From contig CAWIOS010000012.1 of the NCBI GenBank assembly GCA_963837815.1, positions 783,005 to 847,004 of the forward strand: a stretch of DNA of 64,000 nt, written 5' to 3'. Shown in pieces: positions 26,300 through 63,406 of the stretch. The position numbers and the translations under genes were made by a program. The notes below the pieces were generated by a model. That model saw only the letters and a program-made list of their open reading frames with translations, had not been told where the DNA came from and did not search any database. The stretch is from Ignavibacteriota bacterium (GTDB taxonomy: Bacteria; Bacteroidota; Ignavibacteria; UBA10030; UBA6906). The stretch's first letter is position 1. Each line of letters opens with the position of its first letter.

Positions 26300-26956
26300 T
26301 CATTCCCCGGTGTCCTTCACAATAATCCCGAGGAGCGCTGCAATCTGGATGGCCTGCACCGAATCGATAATAATCCCCTTCAACTGGCGGCCTTCGACGC
26401 GCATACCGGCGAGGTCCGATCCTCTGAGGTCGACTCCCTTCAGTGTGGTCCCGGGAAAGTCCGCCCCGGACAGATCGCAGCCCTGGAATACCGCCCCGGT
26501 CAGGTCCATCTTCTCCATCAGGGCCCCGCGGAGGGCGCACTTCTCGAACCGAGCCGATCTGAGACGCCCCGACGTGAACATCGCGTTTTCCATCATGCAG
26601 TTCACGAAGAGGAGATCCGCGCCGTTGAATTCGAAGAGCTGCATGCCGGTGAGGCGGCAGCCGATGAATTCCACCCGGTGGCACCTCGCCTTCTGCAACG
26701 ACGCGCCCGAGAGGTCTGAAGCCTCAAACCGGGTGTCAGAGATCCTGGCGTTTGGCAGGCGTGCCCGGGTGAGCGACGCACGGCGGAGGAGAACCCCTTC
26801 AAATGCAATCCTGAGAGCGGATGCATCTCCAAGAACTGCGTCTTCGGAGACCATCGGGCCGTATTCTGATTCATCGTCGAGCGCCCGCAGGTCCCCGGAC
26901 GGAAGATCCGCGGGGAAGCGAGGCGCCTGGACCTGAGAATTCAGCGGAGACTTCAT
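26300..26956 (-). CDS. Pentapeptide-repeat protein
   Basis: 218 aa composed almost entirely of A(D/N)LxG-type pentapeptide repeats (…ADLSGASLQKARCHRVEFIGCRLTGMQLFEFNGADLLFVNC…GADFPGTTLKGVDLRGSDLAGMRV…). Last gene of the long minus-strand array. Confidence 0.75.
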   Translation of the reverse strand: MKSPLNSQVQAPRFPADLPSGDLRALDDESEYGPMVSEDAVLGDASALRIAFEGVLLRRASLTRARLPNARISDTRFEASDLSGASLQKARCHRVEFIGCRLTGMQLFEFNGADLLFVNCMMENAMFTSGRLRSARFEKCALRGALMEKMDLTGAVFQGCDLSGADFPGTTLKGVDLRGSDLAGMRVEGRQLKGIIIDSVQAIQIAALLGIIVKDTGE

Positions 26957-26964
26957 TTGACGGG

Positions 26965-28062
26965 TCAGTCCGCAGGAGCGACGAGAGGCAAATCGATCCA
27001 GGCGAGCCCGATATCGCGCCCCATGTGCGACGTGCTCGATCCTTCCCTGCCGTCATACAGCAACGCGAGGCGTGAACCGACCGGAATGACGCAGGGCATG
27101 CCTATCGTCCCCTTTGCCCACAAGCAATTCCGGGTGTCGAACACAATCGCCCTGTCGTTCACATTCCAGTGGTTCAGATCCTTCGACCAGTAGACCCAGA
27201 TCGCATCGGTGTACTCCACCCCCTTCTCATCGAGGCCGATGTGATTCGTAAAGAGAAACCAGGTGCTGTCCTTCGGCTCGCAGTACAGAGAGGAGTTTTC
27301 GATCTGTTCCGAAAGCGGGACGATCGGCACCGGGTCAACAGACCACCTGCCGTCAATATTGTTCGTGCGCGCGATACCGAGCGTCCGTTTTGTATTATGG
27401 AGCTCGTCGAATATCGAAGCGCTGAAGAACTGGAGATACCCGGCCCCCGATCTAACGATGAACCCGGGGCTTGCCGTTATCGAATAGTAGGTGCCTTCGG
27501 TGGGTTTGAACGGCACAACGTTGTACTCCTTTTCCCACGGGCCCTCCGGTGAAGCGGAACGGGCCTTCAGCGTCATGTACGGAAACGAGGGAATCCTGTC
27601 GGGAGGAGGGGAGGTGTTGGGCGTCCCCATGTAGAACATGTGCCAGGTTCCCCCCTCCCTGTATACCCAGGGCGCGGAGGCGCTTTTCGCGTCAGGCATC
27701 CCGTCTCCCCCCAGACGGAGTGCGGGACCGTGTTTTGTCCAGTGCACCAGATCGGTACTCGTGGCCAGGCACGCAAGCCAGCCGGCCGGGCCGGCGCCGT
27801 CGTAGTGCATGTAATACATACCGCCCGTTTCGAATGCAATCGCCTCCCTCGCTCCGTAGACATCGCAACTGTCGGGCCCGCCTCCGTGCCTGAGGACGAC
27901 GCCGGCGTCGCGCGCCGGCATCCGCCGCGAAGCGTTCGGCCGCCCGTCGGCGTACTTCTTGAAAACGTACTGCGCGTTCTCTCCGGCGGAACCCTCCGCG
28001 CCCCGTCGGCAGGAAACGAATATCACGGACGAGACGAAGAGCATGACGAGACACCGGCTCAT
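26965..28062 (-). CDS. Lipoprotein with five-bladed beta-propeller glycosidase-like fold (GH43/GH32/GH130-DUF377-like)
   Basis: 365 aa; lipobox MSRCLVMLFVSSVIFVSC; repeated blade-like motifs (GGMYYMHYDGAG…LACLATSTDLVHW; GGTWHMFYMG). Family assignment tentative. Confidence 0.5.
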   Translation of the reverse strand: MSRCLVMLFVSSVIFVSCRRGAEGSAGENAQYVFKKYADGRPNASRRMPARDAGVVLRHGGGPDSCDVYGAREAIAFETGGMYYMHYDGAGPAGWLACLATSTDLVHWTKHGPALRLGGDGMPDAKSASAPWVYREGGTWHMFYMGTPNTSPPPDRIPSFPYMTLKARSASPEGPWEKEYNVVPFKPTEGTYYSITASPGFIVRSGAGYLQFFSASIFDELHNTKRTLGIARTNNIDGRWSVDPVPIVPLSEQIENSSLYCEPKDSTWFLFTNHIGLDEKGVEYTDAIWVYWSKDLNHWNVNDRAIVFDTRNCLWAKGTIGMPCVIPVGSRLALLYDGREGSSTSHMGRDIGLAWIDLPLVAPAD

Positions 28063-28108: not shown

Positions 28109-28801
28109 TCAGGACCGGCACTCCCGCACAATCGCGTCGACGTGAAGACGGGACGGGTTGATGCAGTGGATCGACAGGTCCTTCTGCGAGAGAATGAGCG
28201 GCAGCTCCGTGCACCCGAGTATCACCCCCTCGACCCCCGAGGCCTTTTTGATCCGGTTGACTATGGTCACGAGTTCGCTCCGCGATTTGTCCTTGATAAT
28301 CCCCAGCTCGATCTCCTTCATGAGTATGTGCTGGATGCGGGCGATCTCCTCCGGTTCCGGGGTCGTGAGACGGATGTTGAACCTGTCAAATTCGTCCTGG
28401 TAATAATCCGACGTCATCGTGAACCGGGTGCCGAGGAGGCAGAGCGAGCGGACGTTGAGCGTCCGGGCGTATTCCGCGGTGACCGACACGATGCTCAGGA
28501 GGGGGAGATCCGTCTTCGCCTGAATTGCGTCGAACACCGCATGGGGGGTGTTTGAGGCCATCGCACCGATCCCGGCGCCGCACCGCCTGAGCAGCTCGCA
28601 CCGTATGGCAATACGCTGGATCACAGACTCCCATTTCCCCGCGTCGACAAGCGCGTTGAAAGCTGCAAGGTCGATGCTCTCGATCACCATCTCGGGAAAT
28701 CCGGTCTTCTCGTACGAATCCCTGAACGCGGCGATGATGTTCCTGTAATAGTCGAGCGTCGATTCGGGACCGATGCCGCCGATAAGGCCGATTTTCTTCA
28801 T
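28109..28801 (-). CDS. Aspartate/glutamate racemase-family protein with Ser in place of the first catalytic Cys (SNT…GCTE)
   Basis: 230 aa; MKKIGLIGGIGPESTLDYY N-terminus typical of Asp racemases; first active-site motif reads AMASNTPH (canonical CNT), second motif ILGCTELPL retained. Confidence 0.8.
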   Translation of the reverse strand: MKKIGLIGGIGPESTLDYYRNIIAAFRDSYEKTGFPEMVIESIDLAAFNALVDAGKWESVIQRIAIRCELLRRCGAGIGAMASNTPHAVFDAIQAKTDLPLLSIVSVTAEYARTLNVRSLCLLGTRFTMTSDYYQDEFDRFNIRLTTPEPEEIARIQHILMKEIELGIIKDKSRSELVTIVNRIKKASGVEGVILGCTELPLILSQKDLSIHCINPSRLHVDAIVRECRS

Positions 28802-28835: not shown

Positions 28836-29858
28836 TCAGCGCGGCGAGAGATTGGCCGCGAGGTTGTCGCAAAACCTGAAAAACAGATCCCCTGCGAGGA
28901 AAATCTCGCCGAACATCACGCGCAGGTTTTCCTCCGTGAGGCGGTTGAAGTCCTTCTCAAGAGGCGTCGTCAGGACACCGCCGCAATCCACCGCCGCGGG
29001 ACTGAGGAGTATCTTCTCCTCCCCCTGCGCAAAGTAGGCGGAGGGCCTGTGCCTGGCGCGGGGAAACACAACTACCGTCCACTCCCCGGAACCGTACCAC
29101 GCGAGTATGTTCATCATCGGCTCCTCCTTCTCCCCCGTCGTTCCCGCAAGGGCCGACTCCAGGGCGCCAAGGGCCACAATAAGCGACTCCCTATCCGCGG
29201 ACCTGAGCACGATGAACCGGCGGAGCCCTCCTTCGGCGGCGACAACGCGCATCGTTTTCGTATCGGAGAGGACCCTACCCCCCGCCTCCAGGACGCCGAG
29301 CTCGTTTTCTATTGGGAGGAAGCCCTTCTCCCCGGCCTGGAAATGGAGATGGTCCGGCGCCGACGCGCCGCTTCGCGGACCGTTGTACGTCACCAGGTAC
29401 CGCTTCTGCATCGCGTGGGTCAGATCGAGCATCGTCGCGAACGAGGGACCGATCCGCTGGTCGGTGTGAGAAGTGTGGGGAATCGTGAAATGCTCACCGA
29501 ATATCGGGAACGGATTGCAGAGAACGACGTAGCTTCCGGCAAAGAGTATCCCCCGCTGACCTTCGGGAAGGTTCGCCGCGCAGAGGAAGCATTTCCGGTG
29601 GCTTATCGATTCCGCGTCGGTGTTCGCCGAGGAGGAGACGATCCTGGCCGGGTTCCACTGGATGTGAAGTGAACACCCCTCAAGTTCGATCGTCCGGGAG
29701 CGGACATCCTGCAGTCCCGCGTAACCCGTCCGGAGGAGCGGCCATGTTTCCTTTTGCTGCCGGAGGAGCAGGCGCGCGCGGGTGGCAAGATCACTCCCGC
29801 CGCGGAGAGGGAGCTCCCTGTCGGACAGGAGAATGCGCTGAATGGAGGGTTCCATCAT
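28836..29858 (-). CDS. DUF4922/HIT-like (GalT/VTC2-type) sugar-phosphate nucleotidyltransferase or NDP-sugar phosphorylase-like protein
   Basis: 340 aa; CFLC…(zinc-knuckle-like) and HLHFQA (H-phi-H-phi-Q HIT-type) motifs as in GalT/GDP-hexose phosphorylases. Overall resemblance to DUF4922 is from memory. Confidence 0.5.
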   Translation of the reverse strand: MMEPSIQRILLSDRELPLRGGSDLATRARLLLRQQKETWPLLRTGYAGLQDVRSRTIELEGCSLHIQWNPARIVSSSANTDAESISHRKCFLCAANLPEGQRGILFAGSYVVLCNPFPIFGEHFTIPHTSHTDQRIGPSFATMLDLTHAMQKRYLVTYNGPRSGASAPDHLHFQAGEKGFLPIENELGVLEAGGRVLSDTKTMRVVAAEGGLRRFIVLRSADRESLIVALGALESALAGTTGEKEEPMMNILAWYGSGEWTVVVFPRARHRPSAYFAQGEEKILLSPAAVDCGGVLTTPLEKDFNRLTEENLRVMFGEIFLAGDLFFRFCDNLAANLSPR

Positions 29859-29907: not shown

Positions 29908-31401
29908 TTACGGCGCGCGGTGCAGCCGGCGGGCGCGGATCTCGATCGTGCGTATTTTATCCTTGTACAGATTGTTCAGGTTCATCTTCGCAATCCCCGG
30001 GTCCGCGTCCGAATTCCCGTCCCACCTCCGGCAGAGGTAGATCGGCTCATAAATCCGGCCGACGCGGTACCGGCGCGAAACGGCAAGCCCGACCGCGTAG
30101 TCCTCGCCGTAGCTCACGTTCGGGATATTCAGGCGCCTCAGGACCGGGGTGAAGAACGCCCTGGGCGCGCCGAAACCGTTGACGCGGAGCGCGTTGTTCG
30201 GCCCGTTTTCGGGGGTCCACTCCCTGTGATCGACGACTCCCGGGGGGATCTCCCTGAGGTTGAAATCCGTCATCCGGTAGCTCCCGACGACCATCGCGCA
30301 CCTGTCCCGCCGGAACCTGTCGACGATCCTGCTCAGCGTCGAATCATCGAGATACAGGTCATCACTGTCAAGCTGCGCCGCGAACCGGCCGCAGGAGGCG
30401 GAGTGCACCGCTTCGTTCCAGCACCCGCCGATCTGAAGGTCGTGCGCTTCCGGAACGATGTGGATCAGACGGGAGTCACGCGACGCGAACGTCCGGAGGA
30501 TATCGGTCGTCCCGTCCGTCGAATGATTGTCGACGACGATGACGTTGAACGGGAACGAGGCCTGCTGGCGCAGGGCGGAGGTCACGGCGTCGCCGATCGT
30601 GTTGGCCCGGTTGCGCACCGGGATCACGATCGATGCCGTGACGGGAAATTTCCCCTCGTCCAGGTCGACCGTCTCCCTGACAGGCTTCAGCCAGCCCCCG
30701 GTCTTCTTCAGGTGGTGCGTAACGGCTTTCTCCATCTCGAGCTGGACGACGCGATTCTTCGGATCGACGTAGTCGAAAAGCCTGGCCCCCTCCTTCCTTG
30801 TGTCGGGCTCGGTCTTCGTGTAGAGCATTTCGGCGATCCTGAAGACTCCTTTCTTCCTCGCAACGGCAAGCCGGAGGGCGAAGAAGCCGGCGTGGCGGGA
30901 GTCGCCGATCTCCCCGGCCGCCGCCTTCAGCGCGGATGCCTCCAGGGCGACGACGGAGCCGAAGTCGAAATCGTCACGCACGCTCCCCTCCTGGCAGTCG
31001 ATCAGGGGATGCGGGGCCGGGGAGAGACCCTTCACTTCGATGAAATCGCTGTACACCATCCCCTCACCCGTCGCGCCGGCGACGGAGGCCATCCGCTCAA
31101 GGGCGAACTGCCCGAGCCGGAGGGCGACGTCGTGGAGAACCAGGAGCGCATAGGGGGTCACCGTTTTCGCCGCGATCTTCCTCATCGTCGCGGAGGAGTT
31201 CAGCGCGTTGACGCGAAGCGGCGTGCATCCTTTGAACGGGACGGGCGCGCTCCCCGGGGCGAGGACGTACACCTTCCCGACGATGGCGGACCCGGCGAGC
31301 TGCGCGATCGTATGCCCGGCGGCATCGCTTCCGCCGTACGGAACAAACGCCGTGAAGACAGGTTTCGCTCCCGCGGCGGCTTTCGTGTGAGGACGTTTCA
31401 T
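29908..31401 (-). CDS. Two-domain protein with C-terminal family-2 glycosyltransferase (GT-A) domain
   Basis: 497 aa; GT2 signature [21 protein letters not shown]…[12 protein letters not shown]…DSDD (DxD) in C-terminal half; N-terminal about 240 aa of unknown function. Confidence 0.7.
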
Positions 31402-31411: not shown

Positions 31412-32689
31412 TCAGGTTTTCTTGCCGAAATCCTTGTCGATGGTGATGAGCGCGGTAACGATGAATCCGGGGATGGTGGAGAGCATCACCCAGAGGTAGA
31501 AAGTCGGATACCCGAGCCATTCCTGGAGCGCGCCGCTGAACATGCCGGGGACCATCATCCCCAGAGCCATGATTCCCGTGCAGATCGCGTAGTGCGCGGT
31601 CTTGTGTTCCCCCTCGGAGACCATGATCATATACAGCATGTACGCGGTGAATCCGAATCCGTACCCGAACTGCTCGAGAGCCACGGCGACGTTAATCAGC
31701 AGGAAATTGTCCGGCTGCACCTGCGACAGATAGACGAACATCAGGTCCGGCAGATGCATGACGATGACCATCGGCCAGAGCCAGAACCTGAGCCCCCTGC
31801 GGGGGATGACGAATCCCCCGAGAAGCCCGCCGGCCGTCAGCGCGACGATGCCTACCGTCCCGTACACGATTCCCACATCGCTCGTCGAAAGACCGAGCCC
31901 TCCCTTTGTCCTCGGATCGAGAAGGAACGGCGAGACGAGCTTGATGAGCTGCGACTCGGCAAACCTGTAGAGGAGAAGGAAAGCGAGCGTCGAGAGGATG
32001 CGGGGTCTTGTGAAGAACGCCCCGAAGACTTTGAAGAAATCCGCCAGAGGGGTCGTCACTCCCCCGCTCCGGACCCGGGCGTCGCCGGCAGGGTACGGAA
32101 GCATCAACCTGTGATAGAGGAAGAAGGCGAAGAACATCACGGCAAGTATGCCGAATGTCAGCGACCAGGCGAGCGCCGTATTCCCCCCCGTGTGCGTCTC
32201 GACTGTCCCTGCAAAGAACACGAGCGCACCCTGTCCGGTCACCATCGCGATCCTGTAGAACGTTGAGCGTACGCCCACGAATGCCGCCTGCTCGTGCTCC
32301 TGCAGACCCAGCATGTAGAAGCCGTCCGCCGCGATGTCGTGGGTGGCGGAAGCGAATGCCATGAGCCAGAACAGGACGAGCGTGGCACGGAAGAAGCCCT
32401 GCACCGGGATCGTGAATGCGACCGCGGCGAGCGCAATGCCCAGGATGAGCTGAAGCGTGACGATCCAGAGCCTCTTCGTGCGGACCAGGTCAACAACCGG
32501 TCCCCAGAGCGGCTTGATCACCCAGGGAAGGTAGAGCAGGCTCGTGTAGAGTGCGATATCGGTGTTGGATATGCCCATCCGCTTGTACATGATCACCGAT
32601 ACATTCAGGGCGATGACATACGGGAGCCCTTCGGCAAAGTACAGGGAGGGAATCCAGGCCCACGGGTTGCGTCGTTCAGGCCGGTTCAT
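31412..32689 (-). CDS. ampG: MFS muropeptide permease AmpG family
   Basis: 425 aa, 12-14 TM; AmpG-type N-terminus (…[56 protein letters not shown]…). Confidence 0.8.
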
Positions 32690-33282
32690 GCGCCGGCCCC
32701 TTTTTCGCCGGCCGATGCGGACGGAGGATCAGGCGGCGGGACCGGTGGGACGAGCAGCCTGAATCCGATCAGGTGATTGACTGTCGTTTTCCCCATCGTG
32801 AACGGGGATTCTTCCACAAATGTGAATCCGAGCGCCTTATACCACGCAATCGTCGGGGCGTTTTCGGACATGACGCCGAGCCAGACCCTGTCGTAGCCGG
32901 CCCCCCGTGCGGCGCGGAAAGCCTCCTCCATGAGCTTCGATCCAAGCCCGTGCCCCTGGCACGCGGGCAGGACATAGATCGAGGCGACGTGACAGCGCCC
33001 GGAATCCCGATCGGACGACATGATCATGTACCCGCCCGGATTCCCGTCCAGGAACGCGATGTACCCGCTCGTGGAGGGTTTCCGGAGGTTCCGGACGAGC
33101 GCGTCCGTCGAATAATGCTCGTCGTGGTAGGCCCGGAGGTCCGCCTCGGGGATGAACATTCCGTACGCGGCCTTCCATGTCTCCCAGCCGATTCGCCGGA
33201 CGTCGGGTATGTCACCTTCGGTCCAGGGCCTGATCAACGCAGTGTGAACACCGGGCCCGCTCTCACTCATCGCATCCGTCAA
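32686..33282 (-). CDS. GNAT family N-acetyltransferase
   Basis: 198 aa; acetyl-CoA binding motif (VLPACQGHGLGSKLMEEAFRAARGAGYDRVWLGV). Overlaps ampG start by 4 nt and the amidase 3' end by 20 nt, so translationally coupled. Confidence 0.75.
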   Translation of the reverse strand: MTDAMSESGPGVHTALIRPWTEGDIPDVRRIGWETWKAAYGMFIPEADLRAYHDEHYSTDALVRNLRKPSTSGYIAFLDGNPGGYMIMSSDRDSGRCHVASIYVLPACQGHGLGSKLMEEAFRAARGAGYDRVWLGVMSENAPTIAWYKALGFTFVEESPFTMGKTTVNHLIGFRLLVPPVPPPDPPSASAGEKGAGA

Positions 33283-48096: not shown

Positions 48097-48114
48097 CGGG
48101 AGTTCTCCGGTCGG

Positions 48115-55854: not shown

Positions 55855-57081
55855 CTACCGCAAACCATAATACGGAGCGCTCAGTTTCAGCGTGTTTATC
55901 ACGAGCATCTCGTGAGTGGTCGTCGTCCCGAGGAGCGAGACGTACAGGTTCGGTCCCTTCCCCCAGGCAAACGCAGCCGGCATCGGGGTGAGCGTGCCCG
56001 GATAGAGCGGCTGGCTCGAGCCCCCCGGATGGACAACGACAACTCCCTCGGGTGCATCCGTCCCGATGTACAGGTCGCCGTCGGAGGAGAACGTAATGCA
56101 CTGGACGCCCGGCCCGTTCGGTGTGTACAATCCAGAAAAATCGAAGTATTTCGAGGCGGGGCCGAGACTGTCGGATGAGACGATGGGAAATTGCCAGACA
56201 CTTTCAACCGAGTCGGTTTTCGCGCCAACATAGAGCGACCCGTTGTAGACACGGAACGAGCGGCATGTTGCGACGAACGGGAATGCCGTGACAATGCCGG
56301 CGGGCGTCACGCTGTATATGGCATTGTTTGCGCCCCCGGCCCATATGGTGCCGTTCGCATCGAAATCGAAGTCCACGATCTTGACTCCCCCCGGAAAGAG
56401 AACCCAGATCGCCGCTGCTCCCCCGCCGGCAGGGATCTTGTAAATGACCTGGAGGTTCCGCGCGGCATACAGGACGCCCCCGGGACCCATCTTCAATCCG
56501 GTCCACTTGGTAACGCCCGGAGTCGTCGAGTACGCCGCCGACTGCCTCGTGCCGTCGGGCGCGATCTTCCAGGTGCCGAGCCCGGTCCCGGATGCAGTCG
56601 ACACGAGCGAGACGTAGACGTTGCCGGCGGTGTCGCAGGCAATGCCATTGGGGTCTTCCCCGCTCTTCTGCACGCTGAAACCGGCCGCCGCGGACTTGAG
56701 GCTGTACACGACATAGTTGCTGAAGGCCTCGGCGCCCTGGACGGCCACAGTCACGAGCAGGGAGTCCTGCACGACCAGGGGAGCCCGTACGGTAAGTGTC
56801 GTCGCGGAGGCGGTGAGTATGGCAGCGGGGGTCGTGCCGAAATAGACGAGATCGTTGGCAACCACCGGCGAGAAATTCGTCCCCTTTATCGTAATTACCG
56901 TCACGCCCGAAAAGGCGGTATTGGGCGGCAGGGCGGGATTGTCCGCAGTGAGTGACGTGATCGTGGGAGTGGGAAGGCTCTGCCAGTTGGGATCAAAGAG
57001 GCTCGGTTCGGGCTTCTTCGCACAACCGGAAAACGCGCCCACCAGCGCCGCCAGGCCAAGGATGAATACGGAATGTTTCAT
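55855..57081 (-). CDS. Lipoprotein with IPT/TIG-like domain and NHL/beta-propeller-like repeats (unknown function)
   Basis: 408 aa; lipobox FSGC; IPT-like segment (SGVTVITIKGTNFSPVVANDLVYFG); repeated blade-like motifs (GNVYVS, GVLYAA, GTIWAG, GSLYVG, GDLYIG). Confidence 0.55.
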   Translation of the reverse strand: MKHSVFILGLAALVGAFSGCAKKPEPSLFDPNWQSLPTPTITSLTADNPALPPNTAFSGVTVITIKGTNFSPVVANDLVYFGTTPAAILTASATTLTVRAPLVVQDSLLVTVAVQGAEAFSNYVVYSLKSAAAGFSVQKSGEDPNGIACDTAGNVYVSLVSTASGTGLGTWKIAPDGTRQSAAYSTTPGVTKWTGLKMGPGGVLYAARNLQVIYKIPAGGGAAAIWVLFPGGVKIVDFDFDANGTIWAGGANNAIYSVTPAGIVTAFPFVATCRSFRVYNGSLYVGAKTDSVESVWQFPIVSSDSLGPASKYFDFSGLYTPNGPGVQCITFSSDGDLYIGTDAPEGVVVVHPGGSSQPLYPGTLTPMPAAFAWGKGPNLYVSLLGTTTTHEMLVINTLKLSAPYYGLR

Positions 57082-57122
57082 GAGTTCGCCGTTTCCATTA
57101 TGCTGTCACGAAAAGACTGCAC

Positions 57123-58139
57123 CTACATTGCAAACTGTAAGGAGAGCCGGTGGACGCTGCCGAACACCCCGAAAGGCGTGTATGCGTAGTCCAGCCCGAG
57201 CCCGAGCATCCCCATGATATCCAACTTGCGGAGACCGATGCCGTACGTCCATTTTGTCTCATCCTGGGGAGAGACGTACCCCACGCGCAGCGCGATCATG
57301 TCCTGGAACCTGTACTCCACACCGAAGCGGACCATTTCGGCATAGTCCCGCGGATGCTCGGCGTCGAGCGTCACGAGGAGCGCATGAACCGATCCGTCAA
57401 CCCGCGTCAGGTCGAGCACGTTCATCGATATCCCGATCTTGAACGTGAGCGGGAGCTGGAAGGGTTCTTTCTCGTATTCCACCTCGCGCGAGAAATTCTG
57501 AACCACCATCCCGAAATTCAGGCTCTTGAAGCCGGTCTTGTAGATGAGGCCGAAATCAAACGCCAGCACGTCCACGGTGTTGCTCGACTCCGTGCGCGCC
57601 CCGCTGTTCGGGTCAATTTCCGTGACCGCGAGGCCGAGCGACTGGCGCACGTATTTCGCAGTCCCGCCGATGGAGAACTTGTCATTGATGGCCCGCGCGT
57701 AGCTCAGCCCGAGAGACAGGCCGGAGGGATGAAACGGACCCGTGTCCTGGTATCCCTGTGAGGCGGAAGGATCGACGATGGTCCCCTCAAACGTGCCATA
57801 ATCGACAAAATGGAGGGAAAGCCCGAATACCCCGTAGTCGCCGCCGGAAGGCGCGATGGCGATCGCCCCGCCGTAGTGGTCGATGTCGGCGATGTATTTC
57901 GTGTCGCTCAGCGTGACGCTTACCGGGCTGGAGAGCCGGGACATCGTCGCCGGATTGAAGAACATCGCAGACGCATCCCCTTCCACCGAGGTCAGCGCCT
58001 CGCCGAGCCCCTCGGCCCTGGCTTCCGTCCCGACTTCCAGGAATTTCATGCCGGTCTGTGCGAGCTTTTGCTGTCCGGAGGCCGTCCAGGCGCAGAGAGC
58101 ACACAGAAGGATGAGCAGTCTGAGTTGTGTCGTTCTCAT
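57123..58139 (-). CDS. FadL-superfamily outer-membrane beta-barrel, PorV/PorQ-like (T9SS-associated) candidate
   Basis: ORF 57123..58175; start MRTTQLRLLILLCALCAWTASGQQ at 58139. N-terminal motif GTEARAEGLGEALTSVEGDASAMFFNPATMS resembles the conserved G-ARA-G-GGA…DASA…NPAGL box of FadL/PorV-type barrels. Directly downstream of a T9SS cargo gene. Confidence 0.5.
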   Translation of the reverse strand: MRTTQLRLLILLCALCAWTASGQQKLAQTGMKFLEVGTEARAEGLGEALTSVEGDASAMFFNPATMSRLSSPVSVTLSDTKYIADIDHYGGAIAIAPSGGDYGVFGLSLHFVDYGTFEGTIVDPSASQGYQDTGPFHPSGLSLGLSYARAINDKFSIGGTAKYVRQSLGLAVTEIDPNSGARTESSNTVDVLAFDFGLIYKTGFKSLNFGMVVQNFSREVEYEKEPFQLPLTFKIGISMNVLDLTRVDGSVHALLVTLDAEHPRDYAEMVRFGVEYRFQDMIALRVGYVSPQDETKWTYGIGLRKLDIMGMLGLGLDYAYTPFGVFGSVHRLSLQFAM

Positions 58140-58158
58140 TGAATACCCCGGTTCAGTT

Positions 58159-60264
58159 TTAGCGAATGACGGCAAGTTTCTTTATCGCCCGCTCGCCGGT
58201 CTTCATGTTCTCAAACACCACGATATAGACGCCGCTCACAACGACCTGCCCTGACGAGGTGTTGGAATTCCAGTACTCGTCGCCGCTCCCGTTTGTGTGG
58301 AGGATCTCCTTGATCAGCTCTCCCACCTCGGTGTAGATCCGGATCCTGCACTGCCCCGGAATGTTGAAAAACGCGATCCTGTCACCAACCGTCGCCCCGA
58401 ACCGGAGGGTCGCAATGTCGGAAGCGATGCTGAAGGGATTCGGAACAATGCGGATGCTTGAAAGCGGAGTCTCCACGGACGCCCTGAGGAGATTCACCTT
58501 GTCATACGTCTGCGCCATAAGCCTGTTGCTCGTGAGGAGGGCTCCGGCGGGGGTCGAACCGGTGGGGTCGCTTGTGACAGCGGAGCCAACGCTCAACAGG
58601 TAGTAATAGTAATCGAACCCCCTGGAGAGTGCCGTGTCTTTGTAGCTCCTTTCCGCGGCACCCACGGTTGCGACGAGTGAATATGTGCCGTCAGAGCGGT
58701 CACGCGCACGGTAGATCTGGAATCCTTTCAGCAGCGGATCTCCGGGGTAGACGTCCCAGCTCAGGTTCACCCCGTCCCCGGCGGACTGGGCGGTGAACGT
58801 CTTCGGGGGAAGGGGGGGCTGCGGAATATTATATCCGGAGTTGTAGTTCGCGAGCGCCCTCCGGAATGTCTGGAAAAGCGAGTCTCTCCCGGTAAGGACG
58901 GAGTCATTTTTGGCCTTCGTTCCAGCGGCAACCGTCGCGGGCACACCTGAAGACACAGCCGCCTTGAACGCGTGCCCGACAGAGAGGCATGCCGTGCGGC
59001 TGAGACCGGAGGCACCCTCGGCGCAGACGATATGGATGCTCTGCCCCGGTCCGAGCGTGTACGGGCCGTACCCGTCGGCGTTTGTGAATCCGCCGGTCGT
59101 ACCGAGCGACGGGTCACCGGTGGGCACGTCGAAGGCCCCGTCAGGCTGCACTTTGTCCGCGTGACGCGGCGACGCGTGGCCCGATGACATCACGGCGTAC
59201 TCTGCCGCCATATACGGGACATTGAACTGGCTGTTATTCGACGTCGGAGGATTCAGCTTTTCGTCGGAGCCGAAATATGTCGTCGTCGAAGGCTGTGACG
59301 GATCGTCCGTGGTGTCGGTCGCCGATTTGTCGGCGTGAAGCGTCTCGGTCCCGATGAACTGGGCGGCCGCCAGGCGTCCGACCGTATCGGCGGGATCATC
59401 TGCGGGAAGGGCGGGGGTGAACATCGGCGCCCCGATATTGCTGTACGCGGTAAATGTGGGAAACAATCCCTGCCAGGTGTAGCGGCAGCGGAATTGCTGT
59501 CCCGCGGGGTCGGGCTTCACGCCGTCTCCCCGCGCATCATTCATCGAGTTAATCCCCCACGACGTCGGATTGCCGATTTCCTGGCTCCCGTCGTACGTGC
59601 AGGCATACCGTGACTGTATGAATATGCGGAGGCCGTTGAGCGTCTGGCCTGCAAGCGGAGCGGCGGTCGTACCGTCGATCTGACCGGTATTCGTGAACGT
59701 GTATTCGTAAATAAAGTAGTTGTCGTTGTACGTCTGGCACCAGGCGAGGATTTTCCGCGTCATTGTGACGCCGATGGCGGTATTGTCCGTGTTGATTATC
59801 ATCCGGTCGCATTTCAATGTCGGATCGGTTGTCGAGCTCGAAAGCGGCGCTCCTCCTACCGAAACGACACCGTCTGCATACACGGTGGGGGGATCAAACC
59901 GGTTTATCGTCTTGAACGTGACAGGGAAGAACTCGCCGAGACCGTTGACGCGCGGTCCGACGTGGACCACCTTCTGCAGCCACGTCGTTCCGGTCTGGTC
60001 CGTCCAGTTCGTCACGCCGATCCAGAGGCCCGACGCCGCTTCCATGTCCTGGTATTTGTAGTACGCGGGCCACTGGAGGCCGTCCTGCTGCACGGAGACC
60101 CGTCCTTCCTCGATCTCATGACCCGTAGAGGCAAACCAGTGGTTCAGCGAACCGACCGCCATCCACCGTATCTCAACCTGCGCCCGCGCGGGCACGGCCA
60201 ATGCAAGAAGGGCCGCAAGGGAGAAGGCGACCCCGGAATGTGCATACTGACGATGACGCATCAT
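58159..60264 (-). CDS. T9SS-secreted protein of unknown function (cell-surface, adjacent to TonB-dependent receptor)
   Basis: ORF 58159..60480; start MMRHRQYAHSGVAFSLAALLALAVPARAQ at 60264 (GAGGAAA RBS). C-terminal about 95 aa (…IVPNPFSIASDIATLRF…GVYIVVFENMKTGERAIKKLAVIR) resembles a variant T9SS CTD. Confidence 0.6.
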   Translation of the reverse strand: MMRHRQYAHSGVAFSLAALLALAVPARAQVEIRWMAVGSLNHWFASTGHEIEEGRVSVQQDGLQWPAYYKYQDMEAASGLWIGVTNWTDQTGTTWLQKVVHVGPRVNGLGEFFPVTFKTINRFDPPTVYADGVVSVGGAPLSSSTTDPTLKCDRMIINTDNTAIGVTMTRKILAWCQTYNDNYFIYEYTFTNTGQIDGTTAAPLAGQTLNGLRIFIQSRYACTYDGSQEIGNPTSWGINSMNDARGDGVKPDPAGQQFRCRYTWQGLFPTFTAYSNIGAPMFTPALPADDPADTVGRLAAAQFIGTETLHADKSATDTTDDPSQPSTTTYFGSDEKLNPPTSNNSQFNVPYMAAEYAVMSSGHASPRHADKVQPDGAFDVPTGDPSLGTTGGFTNADGYGPYTLGPGQSIHIVCAEGASGLSRTACLSVGHAFKAAVSSGVPATVAAGTKAKNDSVLTGRDSLFQTFRRALANYNSGYNIPQPPLPPKTFTAQSAGDGVNLSWDVYPGDPLLKGFQIYRARDRSDGTYSLVATVGAAERSYKDTALSRGFDYYYYLLSVGSAVTSDPTGSTPAGALLTSNRLMAQTYDKVNLLRASVETPLSSIRIVPNPFSIASDIATLRFGATVGDRIAFFNIPGQCRIRIYTEVGELIKEILHTNGSGDEYWNSNTSSGQVVVSGVYIVVFENMKTGERAIKKLAVIR

Positions 60265-60295
60265 GAGTTTCCTCGTTAAGGGTTGAAACAGGCTC

Positions 60296-63200
60296 TCATA
60301 TGTCATAGGACAATCGCAGGCCGAAGAAATACTGTGCCGGGTTGAGGAACGTGAACGTGGTCTGGTTCGGCATGACGATATATGCCTTGTTGTCCAGAAC
60401 ATACTGTTTGTGCGAGGGGCTCGGGTCGTTCGGATCATACGGCTCATACGGCACCGTGCGGTAATCGCCCGGGCGGTCATTCCCCGGTATGTTGACGTAC
60501 CCGAGCTGCGTATTGTATGATGCCGGGAACGCCGGGAGATGGAGCGACTTTATGTACGCGTCGAAGTCGGTCCCCAGAACGAACCCGTCCTGCGACATGT
60601 ATTTCAGGTTGAGGACATTGTACATGTCCATATAGAGCTCGATGTTCAGCTTGGCGATCTTGATATTCTTGCTTATCCGAAGGTCGAGATCGTAATAATC
60701 GCGCCACTGGAGATTGTTCTGGACGCCGGGGATCGAAGAACCGCCGCCCCCCGCCCAGGTGAAGTAAAACCCGGACTGCCAGTTGCCGATGAGATCAAGA
60801 CGCCAGTCCCCGAGAAGGCTCACCGGACCGAGCGCGGGCCCGAGGCTCGGGGGGGTAAAGAAATAAATATTCGCACGCGCATAGGGCTGGGGAATCGGCT
60901 GGTTTATCACGGGGTTTGCCTGCTCAAATGCGGCCTGCTCGCTCGCGTTCTGATAATATGTCGAATATCCAAAGTGTCCGTTTGTGCGGACGTCGTACGT
61001 ATAGTTGATGAACCCCTGGATCCAGCTCCCCTGCTTTTTGTCCACGGTCACTTCAAAACCGCGTATATCGCGATACAGGTTCGGGGTCGTCGTGCTGTAG
61101 TTGATTGTCCCGTCGTTGGAGACGTAGGTCACCGGGTACGGCTCGTCCGTCACGTCCTTGTAATACGCGGCGACCCGGACCAGCAGCATGTCGAAGAGAT
61201 TCTGTTCGTACCCGAGCTCGTACGCAATTGTCTTCGGCGCGGCCATATTCGGGTCAGACATGCGAAGAAGCGCGTGCGTGAAGAGGTCGAAGCGGGCCAG
61301 GAACAGGTTGTCCGGCGTCGGCAGGGACCGCATGTGGCCGTAGTTGAAATAGAGTTTCGAGTCCTCACTGATCGGGAATGCGATACCCAGGCGGGGGCTG
61401 ATATCGACCTGTCTCTTGGTGCGGACCTGTGCGATGAGAGTGTCAATCCCCCCCGAATAGGCCCCGGAGAACGCGGAATTGTACGGGTCAGTGTAGTTGT
61501 ACCAGGAGCCGCTCGGGTCAAGGTAGTCGAGGCGCACGCCGAGGTTCGCGATCATACCCTCGAACTCGAGCTTGTCCTGCAGGTAGGCTGCACCGCGTTT
61601 CGGGAATGTGTGAAACTTCGACCAGTAGCGCCCACCCGCCGGAAGGAATGCATCAACGGACGCGTAGTCGATGTTGTCGTCGGTCAACACCCACTCGGCG
61701 CCCGCCTTGAACTGATTGAAGTGGTCGATCTGGCTTGTGATGTCGAATTTCGCCGTGTACGTCGTCACCTTGCTTGAATCGCGCGAGTCGCTCATCCCGA
61801 CGCCCATGCGGAGTCCGGTGATGCCCGTGCTCGGCGCCGGCTCGTATCCGAAAGGAGCCATGTCGACGAGATACCCGTTCCCGAACGACATGATCGGTGT
61901 AGTGTTGCGGAGCGCGGCAGGGTTCGTGCTGTACTTCGACTGGAACACGAAGAAGCTCGCGTCGTAAAACGTCTCCCCGCCCAGCACATGCGTCACCTTC
62001 GCGCCGCCGGATTTGTAGTCGATCGTCGTCGGCGCCCAGTAATCGGTCGAAAAAATCCGGGAGTCGATATAGCTCAGCCCGTTGGACATGGAGCTTGCGA
62101 TTTCGTCCGGATTTCCCGTAAACACACCGTTGTTCGACGCATCGCTCGTCGTCGTCGCCGCATTGCCGGTTCCGGCGTTGTTGTTGTTTGTCCCCGTCGT
62201 GCGCCCTGCCAGTCCTTCCACGAGAAGCTTGAGCGTGGGTGTGATGTCCGACGTGACACGGGCCTGGCCGTTGTAGTTCCGGTACGCGTTGTCCGACAGG
62301 GGGATGATATATGCGCTCTGTGATTGTTTATACGCGGCAAAGAACCGGAGATTTCCGAGCGCTTCCCCGCCGGGAATGGGGCCGCCGATCCCGCCGTCAA
62401 AGTCGTAATCGGGGATGTTGATTTCCGCCTGCTTCCGGTACTCCCAGAGGAAAACCTGCTGGGCCGCAGTCGGCGTGAGGTGATTGGCCGGGTTGGGGTC
62501 TTTCATCGTCGCCTGCGAGACGGCATTCCAGCCCTGGAACTGGGCGTACTGTTGCTGCATGGCCGCATTCCAGGCGCCGTTCTGCGTCCCCGTCCAGCAG
62601 ACTGACGGATCGATGTAGGGACGGATCCAGTACGAGTTCGGGTCGTAGATCGACGGGCCGAAGTGCTTCGGCCGGGGGTTGGCATAGCGGCCGTTGAAGG
62701 AGAAGCTGTAATCGGATTTGCCGCCTTCCTTCGTTATCACGTTAACGAGGCCGGAGCGGAGGTCGCCATATTCAGCGTTGAACCCGCCGGTCTGCACCTG
62801 GACGTCCTGGATGGAGCTGAGCGCGATCCCCGTGTACGGGAGGTTCGTCCGCTCATCGCGCAGCGTGAGTCCGTCCACCATAAAGGCGGTCTGATCGGGG
62901 GTGCTTCCGCGGATGACGGGACCGGTCGGCGTCGCCTGAACACCGGCCTGCAGGCCGATCGCGTTTGTCACATTCGCAACGGGAAGCCGGTCAACCTCTG
63001 CGATCTGCATGTTCGCCGTGCTCGCGGAGATATCCCTCTGAACGACGGGTCTCTGTGCGGTGATGACAATTTCCTGCCCCTGGACCGTCTCTTCGCTCAG
63101 CTTGAAGTTCAGTGTCGTCGTCTGGTCAATTTCGACGCGCACATCGATCTCCGTCACGGTCGTATAGCCGACGAGCGACGCCCTGACACGGTATGACCCC

Positions 63201-63406
63201 GGAGGGATGTTCACGATAGCGTAGAAGCCGTCGACATTCGTCGCCGCACCCGTGGTCAACCCCTCAACCACGACGTTCGCAGAGAGCAGCTTCTCGCCGC
63301 TCCTGGCGTCGGTGACGATCCCGGCAATTTTGCCTGTGGTTCCAGCGAAGAGGGAGGTGGAAATCAAGAGGGGTAAAAGGACGGGCAAGCACCTGATTGC
63401 CTTCAT
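60296..63406 (-). CDS. TonB-dependent outer-membrane receptor with N-terminal carboxypeptidase-regulatory-like (CarbopepD_reg) domain, SusC-like
   Basis: ORF 60296..63448; start MKAIRCLPVLLPLLISTSLFAGTTG at 63406. CarbopepD_reg-like KIAGIVTDARSGEKLLSANVVVEG; plug region (…GLTLRDERTNLPY…FNAEYGDLRSGLVNV); C-terminal barrel ending in LRLSYDI (aromatic C-terminal strand). Confidence 0.75.
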   Translation of the reverse strand: MKAIRCLPVLLPLLISTSLFAGTTGKIAGIVTDARSGEKLLSANVVVEGLTTGAATNVDGFYAIVNIPPGSYRVRASLVGYTTVTEIDVRVEIDQTTTLNFKLSEETVQGQEIVITAQRPVVQRDISASTANMQIAEVDRLPVANVTNAIGLQAGVQATPTGPVIRGSTPDQTAFMVDGLTLRDERTNLPYTGIALSSIQDVQVQTGGFNAEYGDLRSGLVNVITKEGGKSDYSFSFNGRYANPRPKHFGPSIYDPNSYWIRPYIDPSVCWTGTQNGAWNAAMQQQYAQFQGWNAVSQATMKDPNPANHLTPTAAQQVFLWEYRKQAEINIPDYDFDGGIGGPIPGGEALGNLRFFAAYKQSQSAYIIPLSDNAYRNYNGQARVTSDITPTLKLLVEGLAGRTTGTNNNNAGTGNAATTTSDASNNGVFTGNPDEIASSMSNGLSYIDSRIFSTDYWAPTTIDYKSGGAKVTHVLGGETFYDASFFVFQSKYSTNPAALRNTTPIMSFGNGYLVDMAPFGYEPAPSTGITGLRMGVGMSDSRDSSKVTTYTAKFDITSQIDHFNQFKAGAEWVLTDDNIDYASVDAFLPAGGRYWSKFHTFPKRGAAYLQDKLEFEGMIANLGVRLDYLDPSGSWYNYTDPYNSAFSGAYSGGIDTLIAQVRTKRQVDISPRLGIAFPISEDSKLYFNYGHMRSLPTPDNLFLARFDLFTHALLRMSDPNMAAPKTIAYELGYEQNLFDMLLVRVAAYYKDVTDEPYPVTYVSNDGTINYSTTTPNLYRDIRGFEVTVDKKQGSWIQGFINYTYDVRTNGHFGYSTYYQNASEQAAFEQANPVINQPIPQPYARANIYFFTPPSLGPALGPVSLLGDWRLDLIGNWQSGFYFTWAGGGGSSIPGVQNNLQWRDYYDLDLRISKNIKIAKLNIELYMDMYNVLNLKYMSQDGFVLGTDFDAYIKSLHLPAFPASYNTQLGYVNIPGNDRPGDYRTVPYEPYDPNDPSPSHKQYVLDNKAYIVMPNQTTFTFLNPAQYFFGLRLSYDI

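Follow-up and report, generated by a model that had tools for sequence, protein, structure and literature searches.

A putative multi-operon system for the acquisition of exogenous peptidoglycan in an Ignavibacteriota bacterium

Results

The stretch of DNA analysed here, hereafter the window, comprises 64,000 nucleotides of contig CAWIOS010000012.1 (positions 783,005 to 847,004) of an Ignavibacteriota bacterium (assembly GCA_963837815.1). It carries 24 consecutive minus-strand genes, g1 to g24, at positions 26300-63406, beginning with a five-gene outer-membrane uptake module around a TonB-dependent receptor. The open reading frame (ORF) listing, together with the analysis of starts and junctions, placed this run exactly where a first-pass annotation had put it, 26300 being the stop of g24 and 63406 the second ATG of the receptor gene g1, at which the signal peptide begins. 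With the most plausible starts, the junctions range from -20 bp (overlap) to +156 bp, and 15 of the 23 are at most 20 bp or overlapping, in agreement with the tight or overlapping junctions described before. The start codon of g2 was settled by an exact match of its translation to database protein P0241. The G+C content of the window is ~61%. The same-strand run extends past both ends, with a partial gene for a sodium:solute symporter (SSF) upstream and a class A penicillin-binding protein (PBP) gene 441 bp downstream of g24.

The run had earlier been treated as one locus; however, the transcription signals point to several transcription units. A terminator-like hairpin with an 18-bp stem and a T-rich tail lies between g5 and g6 (54230-54269, minus strand) and is predicted to end the transcription unit of the uptake module or to attenuate read-through. 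Two identical terminator-like hairpins occupy the gap between g8 and g9 (49333-49379, minus strand), and another one downstream of g24 (26132-26157, minus strand) likely closes the last transcription unit. In the g8/g9 gap (49290-49400, minus strand), a 30-bp unit, GCGCTTTTTGCATCCCGCCACAGGCGGGGA, is repeated ~2.5 times in tandem; every complete copy forms a GC hairpin with a T run behind it, and the terminator-like element has thus been duplicated. At the other end, a promoter-like site, TTGACA-17 nt-TACATT (63536-63564, minus strand), lies in the ~190-bp gap between the SSF gene and g1, and its score (10/12), though that of a consensus match only, is the top sigma-70-type score on the locus strand in 44001-64000. 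Because terminator-like hairpins follow g5, g8 and g24, the locus is not a single operon, and by these consensus matches it would comprise three or four transcription units or more, the five-gene uptake module being the first. An Rfam scan of the whole window returned no riboswitch or other RNA family.

Domains were called by Pfam, NCBIfam (with curated cut-offs) and PDB sequence searches, which bore out 20 of the 22 domain calls of the first-pass annotation. Its statement that almost every product is linked to murein (peptidoglycan) holds for most of them, g23 and g24 having no murein link.

The outer-membrane uptake module

The product of g1 (60296-63406; this and all other genes of the run are on the minus strand) is a TonB-dependent receptor, as previously annotated, with an N-terminal CarboxypepD_reg domain and a plug (Pfam CarbopepD_reg_2, 1e-18; Plug, 3e-7). 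Against the SusC/RagA model TIGR04056 it scored 65 bits, far below the cut-off of 368, in an alignment limited to the N-terminal part, indicating that g1 is not a member of the SusC family. None of the 24 locus proteins matched the SusD/RagB Pfam family. Orthologues of g1, 40-83% identical, stand first in the module of all related loci.

The second gene, g2 (58159-60261), encodes a conserved protein of 700 aa with a signal peptide and no Pfam family. It is made up of a beta-supersandwich (galactose-mutarotase-like) domain, a helical segment, an FN3-like sandwich and a divergent C-terminal domain (CTD) of the type IX secretion system (T9SS), and its beta-supersandwich fold is unlike the TPR-like fold of SusD. 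It is 50-55% identical between lineages whose receptors share only ~40-50%, and, of 1.84 billion proteins searched, 291 cluster representatives are homologous to it at E<=1e-30. On the most economical reading, g2 is a candidate surface glycan-binding partner of the receptor.

Directly after g2, here and in all related loci, g3 (57123-58139) encodes an outer-membrane beta-barrel of the PorV/PorQ family. It scored 197 bits on the family model NF033709 (PorV_fam, cut-off 90), 94 bits on the PorV equivalog (cut-off 250) and 100 bits on the PorQ equivalog (cut-off 220); being above the family cut-off and below both equivalogs, g3 is thus a family member but a distinct paralogue, which specifies the FadL/PorV-like barrel of the first-pass annotation. 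The product of g4 (55855-57081) is a lipoprotein (lipobox GAFSGC) with an IPT/TIG domain (TIG, 2.7e-10) and a probable beta-propeller (Reg_prop, 3e-5; weak SBBP/NHL matches), and that of g5 (54306-55769) is a T9SS cargo protein, probably also a beta-propeller (faint NHL/Reg_prop matches), with a canonical type A CTD (Por_Secre_tail, 1.4e-11). On TIGR04183 (cut-off 23), the type A CTDs of g5, g6 and g13 scored 41, 37 and 34 bits, respectively; g2 has a divergent CTD-like end only. The C-terminus of g4 showed no alignment with T9SS CTDs. Three T9SS cargo proteins had been counted in the uptake group, and g2 and g5 can stand as such, but g4 is a lipoprotein without a CTD.

Predicted T9SS-exported murein depolymerases

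Two predicted murein-depolymerising enzymes of the locus carry type A CTDs. The first, g6 (51771-54149), combines a catalytic domain of the DigH/Cwp19 family (GHL10) of peptidoglycan glycan hydrolases with FN3/Ig domains. The GHL10 match (PF02638) covers the full-length catalytic domain (1.4e-64, 219 bits, cut-off 27.9), and orthologues in related loci are 37-91% identical. The sole PDB relative of this domain is Cwp19 of Clostridioides difficile (5oq2, E 9.5e-85), which we take to be a murein glycan-cleaving autolysin. With DigH of Escherichia coli (digH, MG1655), the catalytic domain shares 37% identity over 366 aa (E 1e-74); homologues of g6 are labelled 'YddW (UPF0748)' in their source databases, YddW being E. 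coli DigH. DigH is a glycosyl hydrolase specific for denuded, that is, amidase-stripped, murein glycan strands (PMC12288456), and g6 is predicted from its sequence to act on the same material. The T9SS GHL10 glycosidase-like protein had been the weakest call of the first-pass annotation and, with the DigH identity and the Cwp19 match, now provides the strongest evidence for the murein reading.

The second, g13 (40379-42913), is a T9SS-exported N-acetylmuramoyl-L-alanine amidase, as called before, composed of Amidase_3 (6.5e-14, 52.8 bits, cut-off 27), CarboxypepD_reg, two Big_5 domains (4e-22) and the CTD. Its Zn-ligand and catalytic motifs DPGHGG, WESE, SIHSNA and LSEGSF are intact in alignment with CwlD and Cwp6. 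Since the locus pairs a secreted amidase with a hydrolase for the amidase's product, the two enzymes, each bearing a T9SS sorting domain, would attack murein one after the other. Upstream of g13 and overlapping it by 4 bp, indicating translational coupling, g12 (42910-43827) encodes the secreted TolB-like protein of the earlier description, a PD40 beta-propeller (1.9e-17).

Periplasmic and envelope enzymes

Most of the remaining enzymes with export signals fit the trimming of murein fragments. The product of g7 (50529-51770) is a lipoprotein with SH3 (SH3_16, 2.8e-12) and NlpC/P60 (NLPC_P60, 4e-21) domains, of the gamma-D-glutamyl-L-diamino-acid endopeptidase type (DPP VI/YkfC); its PDB matches are the Bacteroides 'dipeptidyl-peptidase VI' entries 3npf and 3pvq (2e-82 and 6e-79) and the YkfC-type protein 3h41 of Bacillus cereus (1e-21). 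Adjacent to g7 and overlapping it, g8 (49400-50539) encodes a dipeptide epimerase of the enolase superfamily, of the L-Ala-D/L-Glu type, with MR_MLE_N/C domains. Its matches are 3iji from Bacteroides (3.3e-147), the 'dipeptide epimerase' 3jva (1e-42), and the L-Ala-D/L-Glu epimerases 1jpd and 1jpm of E. coli and Bacillus subtilis (1e-36 and 1e-33). The endopeptidase and epimerase calls of the first-pass annotation are thus upheld at family level; g8 remains below the NCBIfam equivalog cut-offs for DgcA-like proteins (211 vs 400) and for the YcjG L-Ala-D/L-Glu epimerase (149 vs 343), and its specificity for L-Ala-D/L-Glu is inferred. A twin-arginine translocation (TAT) signal, also present on the orthologue of a relative, leads to a predicted periplasmic location of g8. 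In free stem peptides, DPP VI/YkfC enzymes separate L-Ala-gamma-D-Glu from the diamino acid, and the dipeptide is then made digestible by the epimerase; the g7-g8 pair is no less specific a match to murein than g6 and g13.

Next to this pair, g9 (48115-49263) encodes a NagX-like multi-pass membrane protein (NF046061 NagX, 193 bits, cut-off 480), which matches human heparan-alpha-glucosaminide N-acetyltransferase (HGSNAT) in the PDB (1.7e-26) and is conserved at 67-87% in relatives. The secreted product of g10 (46342-48096) has a class-A-beta-lactamase-like serine peptidase domain (Beta-lactamase2, 6.9e-58; bla_class_A, 108 bits, cut-off 200) and is similar to cyanobacterial DD-peptidases of the PBP-A (Tll2115) class, with PDB matches to 4ewf and Tll2115. 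Its C-terminal region of ~270 aa matched no family in a relaxed Pfam scan (E<=5), which gave nothing usable for g2 and g9 either, so that only the beta-lactamase part of the beta-lactamase-like/esterase fusion proposed earlier is retained. Another fusion, the lipoprotein g15 (36492-39431; lipobox LLSAC), joins a GH3 NagZ-type beta-N-acetylhexosaminidase (Glyco_hydro_3, 1e-86; NagZ, 150 bits) to a class-C-beta-lactamase-like DD-peptidase of the PBP4B/AmpH type (Beta-lactamase, 7e-66; PBP4B, 191 bits), and its homologues are called beta-N-acetylhexosaminidases by their sources. The stop of g15 abuts the start codon of g16 (35141-36490), which encodes a SpoIID/LytB-domain protein of the lytic-transglycosylase/amidase-enhancer family (SpoIID, 1.2e-22; TIGR02669, 165 bits, cut-off 83). 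The product of g17 (33263-35056) is a periplasmic Amidase_3 enzyme of the AmiA/B/C type (3.3e-35, 122 bits, cut-off 27) with a weak AMIN-like N-terminal region (8e-4), on which the CwlD, AmiA and AmiC models are sub-threshold. The NagZ-beta-lactamase fusion, the SpoIID/LytB protein and the AmiC-like amidase were therefore correctly called by the first-pass annotation, and none of the locus hydrolases fell into a non-murein family; membership of such families would, by its own statement, have refuted its reading. Lipoboxes were found in g4, g7, g15 and g23; the last of these (26965-28062) has a weak signature of five-bladed-propeller glycosidases (GH43/GH32/GH117-like), with GH43 at 30.8 bits, under the cut-off of 32.2, and PDB matches of 4e-6 or weaker.

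Inner-membrane import and cytoplasmic proteins

No signal peptide was found on g11, g14, g16, g18, g20, g21, g22 or g24. The cytoplasmic protein g11 (43968-46328; 786 aa) has a NagB-like (GlcN-6-P deaminase) core (PRK02122, 191 bits, cut-off 384; nagB, 83 bits), which matches NagB in the PDB over residues 189-332 only (4e-16). Of the NagB-LmbE fusion proposed earlier, the NagB-like part holds, and the LmbE-like part is unconfirmed (PIG-L, E=0.14 in the relaxed Pfam scan). The protein is the most conserved of the locus, at 91% identity where its neighbours show 63-80%, and at 69% where they show ~50%. Some 140 of its residues are NagB-like and the remainder has no family, which points to strong constraint on an uncharacterised enzyme.

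Most of the other proteins had been named in the first-pass annotation, with families that are all upheld. They include a cytoplasmic BadF/BcrAD-type sugar kinase of the N-acetylglucosamine (GlcNAc)/N-acetylmuramic acid (MurNAc) kinase family, g14 (39435-40373; BcrAD_BadFG, 2.5e-40; NagK_SO3507, 100 bits, sub-threshold), and a GNAT acetyltransferase, g18 (32686-33282; Acetyltransf_1, 1e-20), which overlaps g19. The latter (31412-32689) encodes a permease of the AmpG family of the major facilitator superfamily (MFS). Over 407 aa it shares 25% identity with AmpG of E. coli (E 7e-26); it scored 172 bits on TIGR00901, below the cut-off of 350, and AmpG models are still its best matches. We thus regard g19 as a divergent AmpG-like MFS protein with muropeptides as putative substrate. 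In the cytoplasmic glycosyltransferase g20 (29908-31401), the GT2 domain (Glycos_transf_2, 6.6e-21) spans residues 257-388, and the N-terminal region of ~250 aa (residues 1-254) matched no family in the relaxed Pfam scan (E<=5). It is always followed by g21 (28836-29858), a DUF4922 protein (1.1e-55) with the HIT/GalT-like domain of GDP-hexose phosphorylases (GDPGP1_C in the source annotation) and a weak PDB match to Ap4A phosphorylase; the literature places DUF4922 in the GDP-L-galactose/GDP-D-glucose phosphorylases. The 'salvage' role assigned to g20 and g21 in the first-pass annotation is pure conjecture. An Asp/Glu-type amino-acid racemase is encoded by g22 (28109-28801; Asp_Glu_race, 2.9e-33; TIGR00035, 154 bits, cut-off 93), and a pentapeptide-repeat protein (Qnr/HetL-like; Pentapeptide, 6e-28) by g24 (26300-26956).

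Conservation of the locus in relatives

Relatives with homologues of the locus are metagenome-assembled genomes (MAGs) named 'Bacteroidota bacterium' or assigned to Ignavibacteria/Ignavibacteriales and KSB1. A scan of metagenome contigs with a g2 alignment returned 80 loci. The corresponding scan with a GHL10 alignment also gave 80, mostly unrelated T9SS cargo, as one of its patterns (QNYPNPFN) is the CTD motif; ~12 were true GHL10 loci (L002-L013), of which L003 and L004, together with the chance find L030, were informative. Within the available flank, a GHL10 gene was present in 26 of the 80 loci of the g2 scan, and among the 20 loci whose flank outside the module reached 8 kb or more, 15 have one or more further homologues of the window locus.

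The comparison, which had been recommended in the first-pass annotation, found the locus to be syntenic in relatives. Genes g1-g13 are fully colinear in L082, L083 and L091, with proteins 50-83% identical. At ~80% identity, the whole locus is kept, from the SSF gene to the GH43-like gene and the PBP gene, and at ~57% the lower half is rearranged into the order PD40, T9SS amidase, (AmiC), GNAT, AmpG, GT2, DUF4922, NamZ on the opposite strand, BadF and NagZ-bla. Since gene order is kept in relatives down to ~50% protein identity, the clustering is far beyond chance. The pair of PD40 and amidase genes is kept in L082, L083, L085, L089, L092, L118 and L132 (non-overlapping in the last two), that of GNAT and AmpG in L085, L092 and L093, and g20 stands beside the module or AmpG in L085, L090, L092, L093, L118, L155 and L166. 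In L092 (~80% identity), where g23 is conserved at 74%, a 142-aa unknown protein takes the place of the racemase g22 and the pentapeptide gene g24 is absent. Both genes are therefore recent additions and not core; g22 is accessory, and g24 is probably outside the system.

Linkage of the receptor module to murein enzymes extends to at least four further lineages, and the gene set is conserved across several phyla. Its neighbours are two GHL10 genes, Amidase_3, BadF and GT2 in Melioribacter(aceae) (L003, L090); GHL10, NagX, GH3, NamZ, AmiC-type and T9SS amidases, a NAGPA phosphodiester glycosidase and a phosphoesterase in Balneola (L004); PD40 and the T9SS amidase in Rhodothermales (L089); and NamZ in KSB1 (L088), where two modules stand in tandem. 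A Kryptoniota contig (L030) also bears two modules. Furthermore, a compact low-GC form of the locus, seen in L155 and L166, has at its head, like inducible PULs (polysaccharide utilisation loci), a sensor kinase (Reg_prop, Y_Y_Y and HisKA_3) and a LuxR-type regulator, followed in order by GHL10-CTD, the module, GT2, DUF4922 and an FAD-oxidase/4Fe-4S protein; L159 shares the order on the enzyme side, and L003 and L090 share the leading regulator pair. Melioribacter-type loci have a second GHL10 protein of 514-519 aa without a T9SS domain (L090, 672-2231; L003, 4093-5637), and the window has the secreted form only. The occurrence of a CTD-less GHL10 beside a CTD-bearing copy suggests separate periplasmic and extracellular roles on denuded glycan.

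Tandem copies of the receptor, g2, (PorV-like) and TIG genes were observed in L088, L030, L105, L108, L109, L150 and L158, the second copy being ~36-43% identical to the first; the second module may reflect split labour, possibly between glycan and peptide fragments, or a different substrate. In the Balneola locus, a calcineurin-like phosphoesterase gene and the NAGPA-family gene (11383-13579 of L004) lie between GHL10 and NagX, and their products could detach teichoic-acid or other polymers phosphodiester-linked to MurNAc.

Neighbouring genes

Some genes outside the run may belong to the same system. The exo-beta-N-acetylmuramidase NamZ (GH171) is encoded at 18121-19407 on the plus strand (NamZ_N, 4e-84; NamZ_C, 8e-35), ~7 kb past the run, followed by genes for a DUF3160 protein (729 aa, E 1e-173) and a Memo-like protein, the three spanning 18121-22626. 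As NamZ lies within or beside the locus in relatives (L085, L093, L088, L004 and L144), it is a probable functional partner. A protein with FAD-linked oxidase and 4Fe-4S domains (Pfam), similar to the 2-hydroxy-acid dehydrogenases GlcD/GlpC/YdiJ, is encoded at 15007-17844 on the minus strand; the same architecture (945-975 aa) directly follows GT2(-DUF4922) in four distant loci, L090 (from 21386), L155 (18319-21246), L159 and L166 (18717-21644). This protein may be a partner of the locus that oxidises D-lactate from the lactyl ether of MurNAc.

Upstream, the 3' end of the SSF gene (63597-63998, minus strand), cut by the end of the window, lies immediately upstream of the promoter-like site of g1. 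With the SSF gene in the corresponding position of L091, the fragment shares 61% identity, and an SSF gene precedes the receptor gene in L083 and L091. Upstream of the SSF gene in L091, a relative at ~80% identity, a region (105-6665) whose counterpart falls beyond the end of the window encodes on the same strand a 1239-aa protein with Alginate_lyase, Hepar_II_III_C and CBM9 domains, a 153-aa unknown protein and an arylamine-type acetyltransferase. The muropeptide operon of Tannerella forsythia likewise opens with a gene annotated as 'xanthan lyase', and by this analogy such systems may include a lyase-fold enzyme.

Elsewhere in the window, two methyl-accepting chemotaxis genes lie back to back at 443-4937, one with a 4HB_MCP sensor (minus strand) and the other with Cache sensors (plus strand). 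At 11126-14071 (minus strand), a gene cluster resembling a sulfur-carrier-protein-dependent biosynthetic module encodes a ThiF/rhodanese (MoeB-like) protein, a PLP-dependent (cysteine-synthase-like) enzyme and a JAB/MPN protease.

Discussion

Considering these results together, we propose that the locus is a multi-operon acquisition system for exogenous peptidoglycan, similar to a polysaccharide utilisation locus (PUL) but without SusC/SusD, and we give this reading a probability of about 0.7. Exogenous rather than housekeeping use is supported by the T9SS domains on g6 and g13, by the TonB-dependent receptor and by the PUL-type sensors of relatives. As in the PULs of Bacteroidota, an importer, surface binders, depolymerases, exo-enzymes, a permease and catabolic enzymes are encoded in a co-oriented locus, the uptake genes appear to form a separate unit for which high expression is inferred, and a sensor regulator with Reg_prop/Y_Y_Y domains is present in relatives. 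Among further PUL features, co-localised substrate-specific degradative enzymes are in place, and the sensor/regulator is found in L003, L090, L155 and L166, not in the window. The chitin utilisation locus of Flavobacterium johnsoniae, with its T9SS-secreted ChiA, is a comparable PUL. Both defining features of the canonical SusC/SusD type are absent, since there is no SusD and the receptor fails the SusC/RagA model; the places of SusD and of the surface glycan-binding proteins are taken by the 700-aa CTD protein, the PorV/PorQ paralogue, the TIG lipoprotein and the CTD cargo. Because the substrate would be a glycan-peptide copolymer, the locus also has peptidases and an epimerase, unlike PULs.

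Several observations weigh against this proposal. Murein fragments are the putative ligand of g1, and the direction of flux, from foreign or from own wall, is read from the sorting signals and the receptor only. No regulator is visible in the window, and its 64 kb hold no core T9SS gene, just the one PorV/PorQ-family paralogue, g3. Known SpoIID/LytB family members act on murein outside the cytoplasm, and neither g16 nor its ~63%-identical homologue in L092 (12759-14147) has a recognisable signal peptide or membrane anchor. The matches to AmpG, NagX, NagK, NagB and the class A beta-lactamase are under curated cut-offs. Moreover, no locus protein or other sizeable window ORF scanned matched MurQ/SIS, NagA, AmpD, LdcA or AnmK, so that the route of MurNAc catabolism is incomplete as read; no window protein scanned matched the Mpl ligase family either, and AmpD, LdcA, Mpl and AnmK could be encoded elsewhere in the genome. 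Finally, 5 of the 20 related modules with sufficient flank stand alone, without other locus genes. The ORFs checked around these five were housekeeping genes (for H+-PPase, citrate synthase, CTP synthase, an aminotransferase and others), with no enzyme for another polysaccharide among them. The module as a generic PUL chassis for other glycans was rejected for the sampled loci, as no other CAZyme was present among the checked flanking ORFs; this comparison excludes the paralogous second modules of KSB1 and Kryptoniota.

The same enzymes could instead form a housekeeping cluster for septal splitting and for the turnover and recycling of the cell's own murein, in which the receptor would recapture fragments lost through the outer membrane. 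DigH, AmiC-type amidases, SpoIID and PD40/TolB-like proteins are also division or turnover factors, DigH being a divisome enzyme in E. coli; the SpoIID/LytB, PD40/TolB-like, AmpG and NagZ families take part in recycling or division, the AMIN-like region of g17 is typical of septal amidases, and a class A PBP gene comes next downstream both in the window and in L092. These points and the missing regulator count both for a housekeeping role and against the acquisition of foreign murein. The recycling system of E. coli likewise has DigH (37%), Amidase_3, AmpG (25%), NagZ and AmpH/PBP4B-like peptidases and follows the same logic of an amidase followed by a denuded-glycan hydrolase. However, in the window the T9SS domains of the amidase and the DigH homologue would carry both depolymerases across the outer membrane and away from the sacculus of the cell itself. 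Moreover, NagZ is a lipoprotein of the periplasm, and a TonB-dependent importer with surface proteins leads the locus and would take up material from outside. AmpD, LdcA, Mpl, AnmK and MurQ, on which E. coli recycling draws, are missing from the window, and relatives have a two-component system of the oligosaccharide-sensor type and, in Melioribacter-type loci, the extra CTD-less GHL10 beside the secreted copy. We thus consider a purely housekeeping role unlikely, though the periplasmic and cytoplasmic enzymes likely recycle own turnover products as well.

Lysis of neighbouring (Gram-positive) cells by the secreted amidase and glycan hydrolase, with uptake secondary, has a precedent in that T9SS-secreted lytic enzymes serve antibacterial lysis in some Bacteroidota. 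Both the murein amidase and the glycan hydrolase of the locus are secreted, but enzymes of the DigH type favour denuded glycans and lyse intact walls poorly, the outer membrane shields the walls of Gram-negative prey, no immunity gene or toxin-like partner was found, and import and catabolism make up most of the locus, which renders this explanation improbable. Still less probable is another GlcNAc-containing substrate, such as chitin or chitooligosaccharides, glycoprotein glycans or teichoic-acid-linked material, with the murein enzymes incidental. The NagX-, NagK(SO3507)- and NagB-like proteins beside a TonB-dependent receptor recall the GlcNAc-chitin regulon of Shewanella and Xanthomonas (NagP, NagX, NagK, NagB-II, NagA), GH3 NagZ is active on chitooligosaccharides too, and the Balneola version includes the NAGPA phosphodiester glycosidase and the phosphoesterase. 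Unlike that regulon, the window lacks NagP, NagA and chitinases, its three Nag matches are under the equivalog cut-offs, and the surrounding enzymes are murein-specific. The 24 proteins include no GH18, GH19 or GH20 chitinase and no chitin-binding domain, whereas two MurNAc-L-Ala amidases, the gamma-D-Glu endopeptidase, the epimerase, the DD-peptidase-like proteins, SpoIID and NamZ only fit murein.

Besides these, two systems already described are close to the acquisition of exogenous peptidoglycan that we favour. In T. forsythia, the muropeptide/MurNAc scavenging operon Tanf_08345-08385 comprises xanthan lyase, gtf, gtf, lytB, ampG, ybbC/NamZ and murTKQ under the hybrid two-component system (HTCS) regulator GppX (PMC5388701; PMC7670621; bioRxiv 10.1101/2021.12.02.470905). 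Shared with the window are the uptake of foreign murein fragments, as proposed here, the clustering of AmpG, LytB/SpoIID, glycosyltransferase(s), NamZ and a BadF-type kinase, and, on the window side seen in relatives, propeller-type two-component control (HTCS GppX, PMC5388701). The window differs in having neither MurT nor MurQ, with the BadF-type kinase g14 only, and adds the receptor module, the T9SS amidase, the DigH-like enzyme, peptide-catabolic enzymes, NagX and DUF4922; an outer-membrane transporter and secreted depolymerases are not described in the cited T. forsythia papers. The second system is the murein-peptide catabolic pair of YkfC/DPP VI and YkfB/YcjG, known from the ykf operon of B. 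subtilis and from Bacteroides (3npf/3pvq, 3iji), to whose families the adjacent, overlapping g7 and g8 belong, being closest to the Bacteroides structural-genomics proteins. Here, however, the TAT signal of g8 predicts periplasmic and not cytoplasmic epimerisation, and the pair sits in a receptor/T9SS locus.

For proteins whose identities and sorting destinations are given by their sequences, we propose the following order of events. The T9SS would export g13, which would remove stem peptides from the sacculi or fragmented walls of other bacteria, most of them dead, and the DigH-like g6 would next cut the denuded strands to oligosaccharides. At the surface, g2, g5 and the TIG lipoprotein g4 may bind the fragments and pass them to g1 for import across the outer membrane, and the PorV/PorQ-like barrel g3 may retain CTD proteins beside the receptor. 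In the periplasm, the NagZ domain of g15 and NamZ would trim glycan ends, NagX (g9) may re-N-acetylate de-acetylated residues, g17 would remove residual peptides, and g10 and the C-terminal half of g15 would open D-Ala-D-Ala ends or cross-links. Free peptides would be cut by g7 between L-Ala-gamma-D-Glu and the diamino acid, and the TAT-exported g8 would convert L-Ala-D-Glu to L-Ala-L-Glu. The AmpG-like g19 would take up disaccharides or muropeptides, to which the SSF symporter may contribute. In the cytoplasm, the BadF kinase g14 and the NagB-like g11 may channel amino sugars to central metabolism, D-amino acids may be handled by the racemase g22 in genomes that have it, and the GT2-DUF4922 pair with the recurrent FAD/Fe-S dehydrogenase may process a MurNAc-containing product. 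Because the window has no MurQ etherase, we raise the speculation that these three proteins provide a different route for the lactyl-bearing sugar.

A farther-reaching reading joins several of these elements, and we offer it tentatively, considering it as a whole rather doubtful. The five-gene module would be an undescribed, SusD-independent outer-membrane 'utilisome', in which T9SS-delivered proteins would sit on their own PorV-like barrel beside the transporter. Together with the secreted amidase/DigH pair, it would form a dedicated murein-harvesting machine, common to Ignavibacteria-like Bacteroidota, Balneolales/Rhodothermales, KSB1 and Kryptoniota, and the GT2-DUF4922-FAD/FeS trio would be a MurQ-independent cytoplasmic route for the MurNAc-containing product.

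Peptidoglycan is a large and nitrogen-rich part of microbial necromass in soils, sediments and water. To our knowledge, the organisms and the machinery that dismantle it outside the cell are poorly defined, and the pathways we know of mostly concern a cell's own turnover products or the MurNAc auxotrophy of Tannerella. Nutrient-utilisation loci and murein scavenging are each already known; new here are their combination for this particular substrate, an uptake module of the T9SS/PorV type without SusD, and a number of conserved proteins without known function. The first-pass annotation had been aware of no PUL-type system for scavenging peptidoglycan, and our searches of the full-text literature likewise found neither a receptor/T9SS locus for peptidoglycan nor the g2 family nor bacterial DUF4922 described; as these searches left most subscription journals uncovered, an earlier description is possible. 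The nearest published statement concerns free-living marine bacteria, in which 'genes targeting peptidoglycan' occur frequently (PMC10877868).

Our reading of the locus, if correct, would bring a glycan-peptide copolymer, and a surface architecture that depends on T9SS/PorV and lacks SusD, under the concept of the PUL, and would give secreted GHL10/DigH enzymes a physiological role. It also flags the conserved unknowns g2, g5, g11 and GT2-DUF4922 for biochemistry. The conserved locus would serve as a marker of murein scavengers in metagenomes, with the g2 family and the DigH-CTD enzyme as probes. As relatives of the locus occur in Melioribacteraceae, including a strain-designated genome, the hypothesis may be testable in culture, and the conserved amidase/DigH pair with its novel uptake module makes the question of 'who eats bacterial cell walls, and how' a testable one. 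Should the utilisome reading hold true, these lineages would be specialised recyclers of bacterial cell-wall necromass.

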